DNA of 64,000 bases from Bdellovibrionales bacterium. GTDB lineage: Bacteria > Bdellovibrionota > Bdellovibrionia > Bdellovibrionales > JAUICD01. The position numbers and the translations under genes were made by a program. Every line of letters begins with the position of its first letter. Positions within the stretch are counted from its first letter, which is position 1. Below the pieces are notes generated by a model, which made no database searches, was not told the origin of the DNA, and saw nothing but the letters and a program-made list of their open reading frames with translations. Positions 1 to 39,641 of the stretch are shown one piece after another. The stretch covers positions 320,001-384,000 of the forward strand of contig OZ241865.1 in NCBI GenBank assembly GCA_965203275.1. Direction: 5' to 3'.

Positions 1-10
1 TTTCAATAAG

Positions 11-388
11 TTAATACTGTGACTTTTGTATAAAAGTTACAGTATTAAGTGTTTGTAATTGTTAGACTTTTTTAGGTCGACTTTAGAAATTTCTAATTTT
101 TCGTCTAACACAATTCTTATCGTTTATTATGACATAAAACTTTATATTTTTGTTAAAAAAAATCAAAAAAAGTGACTTTTTGTATCAAAAAGAATCACTT
201 TTTAAAGTTTTTGTATCATCTTGAAACACTTGACCAATCTTAAAGACATAAGATCAGAAAAATAAACAATAAATTTTCATTTGTGTTTTCTGATTTTTGC
301 TTTGTTTGATTTTTCAAAACAATTTTCTTGCAAAAAGTTGCCTATTTTTTGCTCTTTCAAATTGTGACTTTTATACAAAAGTTACAGT
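11..388. promoter_or_regulatory. Candidate invertible promoter segment upstream of pilin (copy 1), bounded by inverted palindromic sites at 11-48 and 361-388
   Basis: Site L is ttaatactgtgactt-TTGTATAA-aagttacagtattaa. Site R is attgtgactt-TTATACAA-aagttacagt. The 8-bp spacers are reverse complements. Near-identical copy at 38003-38380. Confidence 0.6.
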
Positions 389-423
389 GCTAAGTCCTTG
401 AAATCACTAAGCTCATTTAGAAT

Positions 424-720
424 CACTAAAAGTGGTCTGACCTCTGGTCACTTTCTGGTTGCCAGCCGAAGGCTATTCGCCTTCTTAAATGCTGGCAACC
501 TCAAAAGTTCGTTTACTTTTAGTAGGGAGGATCCCTTCGTTTCTTTACACGATGTTAAGGAAACAAGATGTCCTTTGACATGATGTTAAGGAAAAAGTTC
601 CTTCTGATGCCGGACTGCCGGATCCCAGATCCCGGATAAATACGATGTTAAGGAAAAAGTTCCTTCTGATGCCGGACTGCCGGATCCCAGATCCCGGATA
701 AATACGATGTTAAGGAAATA
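424..720. repeat. Structured ~140-nt repeat (424-562) followed by a 62-bp tandem duplication containing GGATCCC-type heptamers
   Basis: Nested hairpins tgacc-tct-ggtca, ggttgccagc..gctggcaacc and gaaggc-tattc-gccttc. gatgttaagg recurs at 582, 644 and 706. Confidence 0.85.
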
Positions 721-739
721 AGGTGTTTAAAAGGATATT

Positions 740-1399
740 ATGGACAAATCAAATCAAAAAGGCTTTTCTCTTATAGAGTTAATGGTGGTAGTAGCTATCA
801 TTGGTCTTTTAAGTGTTGTAGCTATCCCTCAATATCAAAAGTATAAACTAAAGGCACGACAGGGAGAGGCCAAGCTTGCCTTATCCACTCTTTACACAAT
901 GGAACAGCTCTTTATCACTACTTATGGCTATGGCACTGCTAACTTTGCACAGCTAGGCTATAAACCCAAAGGTGTTTATTATTACTCATCAGGATGGCCC
1001 GTAAGGCGTCAAACTAGTACTCCATATAACGTCAATGCTAGAACTAGGGCTGCTATAAATGTACCAGTGACTTACACAGGCCCTCTGGCAACTTCAACTG
1101 GTAACTATGTAAACACCAGACATGCCTGCAATGGCCCATCATCAGATCAAGCTGCCAAAAACCAAGACCGTGGTTGTTTTCTTCATTGGAAAGGAACAGC
1201 CCTCCCATCAAATCGTACTCAAGTGTATGCAAATCAATTAGGTGAAAGTAATCCTAGAGAAAATGAAGTCGTCAATATAGGCTATAGAAATGTAAAATTT
1301 TTAATTGAAACAAGAAACACAGAGTTGGACGTTTGGCTTATAACAGAGAAAAAGAAAATGGTTAATTTTTCATGGTGTAGTATAATTTCGTGCAACTAG
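740..1399 (+). CDS. Type IVa pilin-like protein
   Basis: Prepilin motif KG|FSLIELMVVVAIIGLL..AIPQY and ARQGEAK helix; RBS aagga. Confidence 0.9.
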   Translation: MDKSNQKGFSLIELMVVVAIIGLLSVVAIPQYQKYKLKARQGEAKLALSTLYTMEQLFITTYGYGTANFAQLGYKPKGVYYYSSGWPVRRQTSTPYNVNARTRAAINVPVTYTGPLATSTGNYVNTRHACNGPSSDQAAKNQDRGCFLHWKGTALPSNRTQVYANQLGESNPRENEVVNIGYRNVKFLIETRNTELDVWLITEKKKMVNFSWCSIISCN

Positions 1400-21232: not shown

Positions 21233-21946
21233 TCATAGACCGCTTTTTACATTTTCAAGGTTTTTATGTTCATCTAAAACCCATTCATCATTGATATCTC
21301 CTCCAAGATTGCCAATAGCTCCAATTACAAAAAATATATAACCACTAGGGTTATTACGTATCGCAGAGGCCCCTTTCCGCCATGCTCTATAATAATTATT
21401 CCAAGTACCACCTGCATTAGTACAAGCATTCGGATTTGCACCTGCTGCACCTTCACCTACACTACATCGACTCGCCCTGGCAGGTGTTATCTCAATAGCA
21501 TTAGCTATATTTGTTGCAGACTTATCGGCACCAGCTCGCACACAAGATGGGCAAAGCTTGTGTGTGTTGACTATATCTTGATTGGTACTAGTAGCAAGAG
21601 GGCCACGATAACCTTGAAGTCCAGCACGACTTGTGACATTGATCTGTAAAGCTCCAGATCCACCACTTCGATTGTTAGGATTCCATCCTACCATATAAGT
21701 AATCTCCCCTTGCCCCATTTCAAAACCCATTTGTTCAAGATTAACTGTACCTAGTCCCCATTCATTTATAAAAGTCATCTCTGCTGCATATATACCTGAC
21801 AAAAGAGTCTTTGCCTCTGACTGCATGGCCTTTCTTTTAAAGCTACTGTATTGAGGAATAGCTATGGTAGCTAAAACACCAATAATAGCCACTGTCACCA
21901 TGACTTCTATTAAAGAAAAACCATCCGATAACTTCAAATGTTTCAT
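21233..21946 (-). CDS. Type IVa pilin-like protein
   Basis: DG|FSLIEVMVTVAIIGVLATIAIPQY; tandem paralog of 20518-21207. Confidence 0.9.
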   Translation of the reverse strand: MKHLKLSDGFSLIEVMVTVAIIGVLATIAIPQYSSFKRKAMQSEAKTLLSGIYAAEMTFINEWGLGTVNLEQMGFEMGQGEITYMVGWNPNNRSGGSGALQINVTSRAGLQGYRGPLATSTNQDIVNTHKLCPSCVRAGADKSATNIANAIEITPARASRCSVGEGAAGANPNACTNAGGTWNNYYRAWRKGASAIRNNPSGYIFFVIGAIGNLGGDINDEWVLDEHKNLENVKSGL

Positions 21947-21999: not shown

Positions 22000-22245
22000 A
22001 TTCCAATGATTTAGCATTGTAATCTTCACATAAGTTATTAAGATAAAGTACGTGTCATTGCTAGCTAGACCTTTGTTAGACTTTTTCACTTCCATTTATA
22101 AATGGAGGGTTTTTAATTTTTTATCTCAACATAACTTTCTTATCGTTTATTATGACACAAAACTTCATACCTTTGTTGAAAAAATCAAATATTTTTATAT
22201 TTTGTATCATAAAGAATCACTTTTTGAATTTTTGTATCATTTTAA
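22000..22245. promoter_or_regulatory. Diverged homolog of the pilin switch segment, opposite orientation relative to its pilin genes
   Basis: Shares ttgttagacttttt, ttcttatcgtttattatgaca, ttttgtatca and aagaatcacttttt with 59-220. 22001-22025 resembles the reverse complement of the pilin-proximal arm of copies 1 and 2. Confidence 0.6.
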
Positions 22246-22279
22246 ATGACTTTGAATGATTTTGAATGACTAAAATAAA

Positions 22280-22355
22280 TGGTAGGGACAGCCGGATTCG
22301 AACCGACGACATCCACTTTGTAAGAGTGACGCTCTACCAACTGAGCTATGTCCCT
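22280..22355 (-). tRNA. tRNA-Val(TAC)
   Basis: Cloverleaf with acceptor AGGGACA/TGTCCCT, D-arm GCTC-AGTTGGTA-GAGC, anticodon loop CT-TAC-AA, T-loop TTCGAAT, encoded CCA. Confidence 0.95.
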
Positions 22356-38002: not shown

Positions 38003-38380
38003 TTAATACTGTGACTTTTGTATAAAAGTTACAGTATTAAGTGTTTGTAATTGTTAGACTTTTTTAGGTCGACTTTAGAAATTTCTAATTTTTCGTCTAA
38101 CACAATTCTTATCGTTTATTATGACATAAAACTTTATATTTTTGTTAAAAAAAATCAAAAAAAGTGACATTTTGTATCAAAAAGAATCACTTTTTTTAAT
38201 TTTTGTATCATCTTGAAACACTTTACTAATCTTTAAGACATAAGATCAGAAAAATGAGCAATGGTTTTTCATTTTTGTTTTATAACTTTTGATTTGTTTG
38301 ATTTTTCAAAACAATTTTCTTGCAAAAAATTGCCTGTTTTTTGCTCTTTCAAATTGTGACTTTTATACAAAAGTTACAGT
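38003..38380. promoter_or_regulatory. Candidate invertible promoter segment upstream of pilin (copy 2)
   Basis: Colinear near-identical copy of 11-388 (offset 37992); sites at 38003-38040 and 38353-38380. Confidence 0.6.
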
Positions 38381-38948: not shown

Positions 38949-39641
38949 ATGGAACGTTTAATTAAGAATCAAAAAGGTTTTAGTTTAATTGAATTAATGG
39001 TCGTCGTGGCTATTATTGGATTATTGGCCGCTATTGCTATACCACAGTATAGTCGGTTTCAAAAAAGGGCAATTCAAACAGAGGCAAAAAGTGGTTTAAG
39101 TGGTTTATTTGTAGCACAAAAGGCATTTATAACAGAATGGAATTATGCAACATCCGATATGGACCAGCTAGGTTATGATATTGATGGAAATCAAAATAAT
39201 TATACTATTGGCTTTGCAGGAGCAACTACCAGCACAAGAGATGCAGAGTCGAATCCAGCTAATTATAGAGGACCAAAAGCAGAATCTAATAACGCAAATC
39301 AAAATTTCAATGTGGGTAAAACTATGCCTGCAACAGTAACAGCTAATAATGACGCAGCTTTTAGCGGTACGGCAGGACATGCATGTGCTGATAATGCAGG
39401 CGGTACAGCTTGTGATGCTGCTTCTGTCGCTGCAAACTGTGTTTGGCGAGGTGGCTCTTGTCAAGCACCACTTCAAAATGGTCTATATATAAGTGGAACA
39501 AGCGGGATAAATTATTTAGCTGGAGCTGTGGGATACCTGGGAACAAAAGACACAGGTATAGTTGATGATGATCTTGATGTTTGGACTATTAACCATGAGC
39601 GTACGTTAGTGGTTAGTCAGGACGGAACAGATAAAGATTAA
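38949..39641 (+). CDS. pilA: Type IVa pilin, probable major pilin
   Basis: RBS ggagg; NQKG|FSLIELMVVVAIIGLLAAIAIPQY; AIQTEAKSGL; followed by a terminator. Confidence 0.85.
   Translation: MERLIKNQKGFSLIELMVVVAIIGLLAAIAIPQYSRFQKRAIQTEAKSGLSGLFVAQKAFITEWNYATSDMDQLGYDIDGNQNNYTIGFAGATTSTRDAESNPANYRGPKAESNNANQNFNVGKTMPATVTANNDAAFSGTAGHACADNAGGTACDAASVAANCVWRGGSCQAPLQNGLYISGTSGINYLAGAVGYLGTKDTGIVDDDLDVWTINHERTLVVSQDGTDKD

Follow-up and report, generated by a model that had tools for sequence, protein, structure and literature searches.

A dispersed family of putative invertible promoters upstream of type IV pilin genes in a Bdellovibrionales bacterium

Does the short AT-rich segment that lies between two palindromes upstream of a type IV pilin gene in this Bdellovibrionales bacterium act as an invertible promoter, and if so, which enzyme inverts it? 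The locus that raises the question lies at the left end of the window, by which we mean the whole 64,000-nucleotide stretch that was analyzed (G000:320001-384000, where G000 denotes this genome, a 2.57-Mb single contig). A first-pass annotation of the locus had proposed a fimS-type switch that turns the pilin on and off by inversion. Herein, we describe a computational follow-up of that proposal, for which the sole other genome of the genus, G001, served as the same-genus comparison.

Results

The window element belongs to a family of 22 cassettes

The proposed AT-rich segment between inverted palindromic sites was borne out. Two 28-bp sites, each consisting of 11-bp arms around a 6-bp core, are spaced 345 bp apart in inverted orientation and enclose the segment (Table 1); the palindrome of the left site reaches out to positions 11-48. 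Inverted site pairs of this kind occur twice in the window, as compared to none in each of 20 resampled windows. The consensus used for integration host factor (IHF) was WATCAANNNNTTR, and the 13-mers outside both sites, which had been described as resembling it, are each one base off and closely abut the sites. Genome-wide, 27 of 44 outer flanks match the consensus with at most one mismatch, against a background of 0.15%, and two IHF/HU-family genes (PF00216) are encoded inside the window. The minus-strand motif TGTCATAAT, said to point away from the pilin, is present and directed as described.

Table 1. Coordinates of the features in the window (position 1 is its first nucleotide)
Feature	Position	Strand	Remarks
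IHF-like accessory motif, outer flank type A (pilin-distal)	1..13	+	1 mismatch to consensus; predicted
Left 28-bp recombination-type site, 11-6-11	16..43	+	Arms 16-26 and 33-43; core TGTATA 27-32
Invertible core, 317 bp, 77% A+T	44..360	.	22 full copies, 87-100% identical to window copy
Extended -10-like motif TGTCATAAT, predicted promoter	126..134	-	Directed away from pilin; conserved in cassettes
Proximal copy of 10-bp direct repeat TGATACAAAA, predicted activator site	178..187	-	Conservation; putative role
Distal copy of 10-bp direct repeat TGATACAAAA	209..218	-	
Right 28-bp site, inverted relative to left	361..388	-	Core TATACA at 372-377 on +
IHF-like accessory motif, outer flank type B (pilin side)	391..403	-	1 mismatch to consensus; predicted
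Leader between cassette and pilin: hairpin and direct repeats	425..726	.	Two terminator-like hairpins on +
Type IV pilin gene, 219 aa	740..1399	+	N-terminal pilin motif TIGR02532 above cut-off
Site-less copy of promoter module, 78% identical	22073..22252	-	Directed at two pilin genes 127 bp away
Pilin gene downstream of site-less promoter copy	21233..21946	-	PF07963
Second complete cassette, orientation same as first	38008..38380	+	
Type IV pilin gene behind second cassette	38949..39641	+	PF07963

The element had been presented as a single switch. Instead, window positions 16-388 are one of 22 near-identical cassettes dispersed over the genome, with a second copy in the window and 20 more elsewhere. 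The suggested genome-wide search for the site returned 51 copies at up to one mismatch, of which 44 form 22 inverted pairs 344-346 bp apart and seven are single. The cassette cores are 87-100% identical to that of the window, and the mean pairwise identity of the cassettes including their sites is 94%. The 6-bp core TGTATA is invariant in 44/44 paired sites, with variation at several arm positions; within each of the 22 pairs the cores are reverse-complementary and the arms differ at one to four positions. Beyond the sites, two fixed flank types, A and B, are conserved over 60-100 bp.

The family is narrowly distributed. A pattern scan of a genome collection yielded 24 loci, 21 of them from one Bdellovibrionales bacterium metagenome-assembled genome (MAG) and one from another Bdellovibrionota MAG; the remaining two were single matches in unrelated bacteria and were taken as chance. 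A metagenome pattern scan for the cassette gave zero matches, and when 40 relatives were searched at the DNA level, no full cassette turned up beyond the genus. The site itself has multiplied in this genus alone, with 51 and 40 copies as compared to three or fewer in 249 further genomes from the same order (control, four or fewer).

Six single sites (G000 469347, 1693227, 1755286, 1900241, 1905098, and 1982019; one is half-degenerate) each retain ∼58 bp of a cassette end followed by a separate promoter-like match, TTGACT-17-TATAAA, and precede ankyrin-repeat genes (6/6 match Pfam Ank). It should also be noted that the cumulative GC skew of the genome is nearly flat (range -2015 to +1127), which suggests frequent rearrangement.

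Cassettes are found in both orientations

Inversion at these sites, as had been proposed, is evident from paralogues that occur in both orientations, at 2 of 22 loci in G000 and 1 of 18 in G001. The same core end touches flank A in 20 of the 22 G000 cassettes and flank B at G000:1721694 and 1793011. The B flank of the flipped locus at 1721694 is identical at 97/112 positions to the B flanks of two unflipped loci.

The related genome provides a more precise case. G001 contains 40 sites, 36 of which form 18 pairs 135-136 bp apart; their arms are related to those of G000 and their core, CGTACA, differs, the central dinucleotide TA being common to both. Seventeen pairs are oriented one way and one is opposite. 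The flipped locus, 1186614, has a duplicate at 1719674 that matches it over 503 identical bp on the gene side and 67 on the far side, with identical sites. Between these sites, the two 111-bp cores are exact reverse complements (111/111). A check of related genomes had been called for, and this pair is a precise inversion within the sites, with no substitution since.

The same pairs bear on the length of the exchange core. The first-pass annotation had read the spacers as 8-bp reverse complements. Their inverted relation stands, and a length of 6 bp is the better reading for the exchange core: in G001 the 6-mer matches within 18/18 pairs and the 8-mer within only 9/18. DNA comparison detected no homology between the G001 and G000 cores beyond the sites, and no clear promoter was found in the G001 core. 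In addition, two single sites of G001, at 1006327 and 1012449, are inverted relative to each other at a distance of 6.1 kb, and each precedes a pilin gene that points outward.

Sequencing reads were analyzed as well. Thirteen runs matched, with no RNA run among those listed, and four of the 13 were examined, as contigs throughout. Among the contig pieces listed for these four runs no joint was present at either window site; the pieces were short, mostly ∼60 bases inside the repeat, where they broke. The window core was covered 7-18x deeper than the unique flank, a depth that fits a real repeat and does not give a copy number. One contig of run X3 contained an opposite-strand joint, L001 14943 to 15060, off any site. 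Four runs labeled as sponge metagenome contain 0.21-0.28 of the words, and a sponge habitat is a hint only.

Most cassettes precede a variable repertoire of pilin genes

Most cassettes are positioned in front of type IV pilin genes, a different one in each case. A pilin start lies within 1.3 kb on the B side of 20 of 22 cassettes, as compared to 4.4% of random non-coding points. The next gene on that side is a type IV pilin for 19 of the 22. Of the other three cassettes, one has a pilin as the second gene, after a lipoprotein-like gene; one precedes an 846-aa lipoprotein-like gene that lacks a Pfam match; and one has nothing but repeats on this side. In an alignment of the 20 pilins linked to cassettes, identity is 78% in the first 30 columns and 26% beyond column 70.

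Within G000, 38 genes matched the prepilin motif, of which four were set aside by eye as pseudopilin-like and 34 were kept. A cassette is found no more than 3.5 kb ahead of 23 of the latter; the other 11 are without a complete cassette in that range. The prepilin model gave 25 matches in G001 and 6-10 in three other relatives. The 18 pairs of G001 precede eight pilin genes, two large proteins with a prepilin-like start, and eight large lipoprotein-like genes; two of the large downstream proteins are without a Pfam match. A pilin at G000:213045 is a 99.5% identical copy of the window pilin with the same leader repeats and no cassette, and the pilin at G000:890225 keeps flank A with the cassette absent.

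Genes for a sigma-54 activator, a sensor kinase, and PilC-like and PilT-like proteins are found at L001:1322-6887, 8-14 kb before the window. These constitute a candidate pilus regulatory cluster, the last three genes having been named by eye.

The core carries a likely promoter module

The hexamer CATAAT is kept in 22/22 cassette cores, and the full motif TGTCATAAT in 21/22. Upstream of the motif, two copies of a 10-bp direct repeat (TGATACAAAA) are located 31 bp apart in 22/22 cassettes and in three of four copies of the module that lack a site pair. All four of these unpaired copies have CATAAT, and all four have a gene start 127-352 bp away in the direction of the -10 motif. Two of the copies are directed at pilins, of which one is at 21946 in the window; a third is directed at a pilin-companion gene and the fourth at another gene. 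The copy in the window directly adjoins a tRNA-Val(TAC) at 22280-22355.

Because 4/4 unpaired copies are directed at a gene, the module that carries the -10 motif is likely a promoter, and the majority orientation, which includes the window locus, is likely OFF. The tentative OFF call that had been made for the window locus thus gains support. The promoter prediction draws on the -10 motif and its conservation, as a scan of window positions 1-1200 listed no sigma-70 site with a -35 element. A sigma-54 promoter around the cassettes was also considered and rejected, the motif being found at 1 of 40 loci.

The leaders behind the cassettes differ in length. The flipped loci at 1721694 and 1793011 have short leaders of 85 and 106 bp to the start codon. 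At the window locus, the pilin lies 352 bp from the cassette, behind repeats that include two terminator-like hairpins. This leader may block expression, so that the window pilin may be poorly expressed even after a flip. The repeats of this leader are also found around many other cassettes, and an exact 62-bp tandem duplication occupies window positions 582-705. In its present orientation, the predicted promoter at the window locus is directed at a Ser/Thr kinase gene 429 bp upstream.

A small tyrosine recombinase is the likely invertase

A PF00589 profile search of the genome found only two tyrosine recombinases in G000, and G001 likewise has only two, of the same two kinds. The smaller enzyme is a 187-aa protein (G000:2047789-2048352) above the PF00589 cut-off that consists of the catalytic domain only, without the N-terminal SAM domain; its gene is 1.7 Mb away from the window switch. 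The other is an XerD-like protein of 307 aa (G000:312139-313062, L001:7139-8062) with Q for the H of HxxR (QFRH). Its gene lies 7 kb before the window cassette and 2.9 kb from a single site. These being the only two PF00589 matches genome-wide, no separate XerC was found in G000. Serine recombinases are represented by eight resolvase-family matches, three of them in long open frames, and intact ones are present. The IS110/Piv-type domain PF02371 gave zero matches in G000, whose assembly is 90% complete.

Orthologues of the 187-aa enzyme, 46-72% identical, are encoded in 31 of 40 relatives, and the catalytic R, K, HxxR, H, and Y are invariant in 21/21 aligned orthologues. Of the 31 relatives that have the recombinase gene, 19 also have a like site no more than 6 kb from it, usually 110-250 bp upstream, between the gene and a divergent helix-turn-helix-like gene. 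The site in these relatives has mostly the core TAGTTA, followed by the same IHF-like flank. The suggested search for orphan tyrosine recombinases therefore turned up an enzyme that is tied to a like site in relatives. Based on this gene-site linkage and on the anatomy of the site, we infer that the flipping enzyme is likely the distant 187-aa recombinase. The best matches of this enzyme among solved structures are XerH and archaeal Xer, and a phage search with it returned distant integrases only, the best listed being ∼31% identical.

The arrangement in relatives amounts to an order-wide module of a divergent helix-turn-helix-like gene, one 28-bp site, and a 175-187-aa recombinase (e.g., G040 L107:16721-17458; L040-L059); in G015 and G018, the site is separated from the recombinase gene by ∼5 kb of other genes. 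Partner sites for the single sites of relatives were absent within the DNA examined except in G002 (L118:4559-4650), where two sites with inverted cores, 69 bp apart, lie upstream of the recombinase gene and form a possible miniature invertible element. No site was found beside the 187-aa recombinase gene in G000. A single site is located at L001:10961-10988 (G000:315961), 4 kb before the window and 2.9 kb from the xerD-like gene. This site and the one beside the G001 recombinase gene have the neighboring motif TTAATGAAACATAATACG in common, and the G000:315961 site is probably the ancestral home site.

The dif site and XerCD have been treated for Bdellovibrio bacteriovorus (PMC11318664, PMC2731167). 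The recombinase-site locus of G040 is 12 kb from a separate canonical dif, at the GC-skew switch, which resembles the dif given for B. bacteriovorus HD100 in the available text of PMC2731167; that of G148 is 25 kb from a dif-like match. With the pattern used, such proximity was not seen in G009, G020, G030, and G089, which leaves terminus linkage of the ancestral site partly supported. Whether the 28-bp site is itself the dif of G000 was also considered and rejected, as the dif pattern gave 15 weak matches versus eight in the control, none at these sites.

Discussion

Our current hypothesis, to which we assign a probability of roughly 70%, is that the window segment is an invertible promoter that switches the downstream pilin ON and OFF and is probably flipped by one distant 187-aa tyrosine recombinase. 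The enzyme would bind the site arms and exchange strands across the 6-bp core, with the IHF-like sites on the outer flanks assisting inversion. The core would hold an activator-assisted extended -10 promoter that fires out of one end. At the 20 of 22 loci where this end faces away, the window locus included, the pilin would be silent; at the two loci where it faces the gene in the assembled consensus, the gene would be expressed. The predicted ON loci are the pilin operon at G000:1721694 and the 846-aa lipoprotein-like gene at G000:1793011. Cells could thereby change the pili on their surface, with phase and antigenic variation across a set of ∼20 pilins that average 26% identity in their C-terminal parts.

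Several other explanations were weighed against this hypothesis. The cassettes might invert and yet act on a fixed promoter in the flank, the part that flips being a transcription block or a site for an activator or for IHF. Such an arrangement would suit a core without a -35 match and the short repeat TTGATRTTTTT that the 111-bp G001 core and the fixed gene-side flank have in common, and it has a counterpart in C. difficile, where cwpV and flagella are described, in the available text of PMC7241687, as under post-transcriptional orientation control. We nevertheless consider it unlikely, since what the unpaired copies have kept is the -10-like motif with its two repeats, directed at a gene in 4/4 cases, and no conserved sigma-54 motif surrounds the cassettes (matches at 1/40 loci). 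Equally unlikely is that the cassettes are co-duplicated regulatory modules in which the palindromes are operators, the recombinase-like protein is a DNA-binding repressor, and the flipped copies are rare past accidents, now locked, that arose via homologous recombination between the inverted repeats. An asymmetric core that is complementary within 40/40 pairs yet different between species is not something that operators need, flipped copies are present in both genomes, one of them without a substitution against its duplicate, and the catalytic residues of the small recombinase are invariant. These observations outweigh the operator-like position of the single site in relatives, between the recombinase gene and a divergent gene, and the lack of a flip in the read contigs of four runs, which are short and broken in the repeat. 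The recombinase-derived repressor MrpR also offers a parallel, as a distant Atlas cluster has the MrpR catalytic-like domain in 15% of its members.

The switches could also be real and flipped by another enzyme, either the XerD-like protein (G000:312139-313062) or a serine recombinase. The XerD-like gene lies 7 kb before the window cassette and 2.9 kb from a single site; however, its product has Q for the H of HxxR, and it is the small recombinase gene with which the site travels in 19/31 relatives. For a serine recombinase there are the eight resolvase-family matches, three in long open frames. The TA dinucleotide at the center of both the G000 and the G001 cores also counts for another enzyme, and against it stands the finding that all six core bases are matched, as fits tyrosine-type strand exchange. 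We judge another enzyme to be improbable. A miniature mobile element of the MITE type, with terminal inverted repeats and insertion either way, would account for the dispersal of so many near-identical copies through a genome rich in repeats. It would not account for 20/22 copies before pilins versus 4.4% by chance, for outer flanks that are conserved over 60-100 bp past the repeats rather than being unrelated target DNA, or for site-less core copies that serve as ordinary upstream regions, and this explanation, by far the least probable, is largely refuted.

With the promoter-inversion hypothesis as the preferred reading, the system can be placed among known ones. FimB and FimE are small recombinases that consist of the catalytic domain only and are assisted by IHF, and Mpi is a serine recombinase. 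Neisseria pilE/pilS conversion and Moraxella Piv inversion vary type IV pilins by moving coding sequence. The present system is like these last two in switching among variant type IV pilins and unlike them in that whole pilin genes are fixed and an upstream segment flips. A Piv-type inversion as in Moraxella was rejected, as PF02371 gave no match in the 90% complete G000 assembly and the segment that inverts is located ahead of the pilin genes, outside their coding sequence.

In Escherichia coli, fimS is a ∼300-bp promoter-carrying segment before a pilus subunit gene, according to the available text of PMC7241687. The window element has a predicted promoter segment of similar size in the same position, and its candidate enzyme is also limited to the catalytic domain. 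Whereas fimS is one locus with adjacent enzymes and controls type 1 fimbriae, the cassettes are dispersed, a type IV prepilin motif lies downstream, and the enzyme is 1.7 Mb away. The 187-aa enzyme scores 35-39 bits against tyrosine-type DNA invertase models whose cut-offs are 221-222. The fimS-type label of the first-pass annotation could thus not be upheld; with invertase scores far below cut-off, a remote enzyme gene, and type IV pilins in place of fimA, the element is not a fimS/FimB member.

In architecture, the system resembles the mpl genes of Mycoplasma penetrans (P35 family), for which the available text of PMC10502178 and PMC2268961 describes 38 paralogous surface-protein genes, each with its own adjacent invertible promoter, that switch independently, with tyrosine recombinases proposed as the enzymes. 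Both systems have a large paralogous family of surface genes with a per-gene invertible promoter, a predicted one in the present case. As far as that text describes them, mpl genes encode lipoproteins and form three clusters, near which candidate recombinases are encoded, whereas here type IV pilins would be controlled from 22 loci round the chromosome, through a near-identical copied cassette and a Bdellovibrionota-specific enzyme. In Bacteroides fragilis, Mpi inverts seven promoters, and in C. difficile the tyrosine recombinase RecV inverts several unlinked elements upstream of surface genes (available text of PMC7241687). The present system resembles such global invertases in having many unlinked invertible elements with one site (51 copies in G000, 40 in G001); the targets described for Mpi and RecV are unrelated loci (capsules, CwpV, flagella, regulators), in contrast to one gene family here. 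With XerCD/dif and the single-enzyme systems XerS and XerH the system has in common a 28-bp 11-6-11 site and, in relatives, one site beside one recombinase gene. It departs from the XerCD dif, a single terminus copy with XerC and XerD arms, in its 51 dispersed copies with symmetric arms.

Taken together, the system is best described as a dispersed, probable invertible-promoter network with many loci over a type IV pilin repertoire. It is real, is much larger than first seen, and has an ancestral enzyme and site that can be traced. To our knowledge, established mechanisms of type IV pilus variation relocate coding sequence, whereas in this genome copied promoter switches appear to select from an unchanging set of ∼20 highly divergent pilins. 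We found no paper on phase variation by DNA inversion in the Bdellovibrio lineage in a search that was thin on subscription journals, and surveys of invertible elements or their supplements might list elements from Bdellovibrionota. Relatives, cultured Bdellovibrio species among them, retain the ancestral arrangement of a single site next to the enzyme gene, and therefore both the rise of a global invertase and the function of this conserved enzyme are directly testable. A small enzyme with a species-specific core is also a candidate for orthogonal DNA switches.

A wider reading, which we offer tentatively and would not give even odds, is that an order-wide, terminus-linked single-site recombinase was recruited, within one genus, to operate a switchboard that spans the chromosome, with ∼20 hypervariable pilins behind copied flip-promoters and roughly one pilin locus ON at a time. 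Under this reading, two species would have built different cassettes from the same site, with the core changed. As one core is common to all 51 sites, the enzyme may also recombine cassettes with one another and with the single ankyrin-gene sites, and such cross-recombination would reshuffle the chromosome, in line with its flat GC skew. The switchboard, if true, would add a new mechanism by which type IV pili vary antigenically, and it would allow the origin of a global invertase to be traced.
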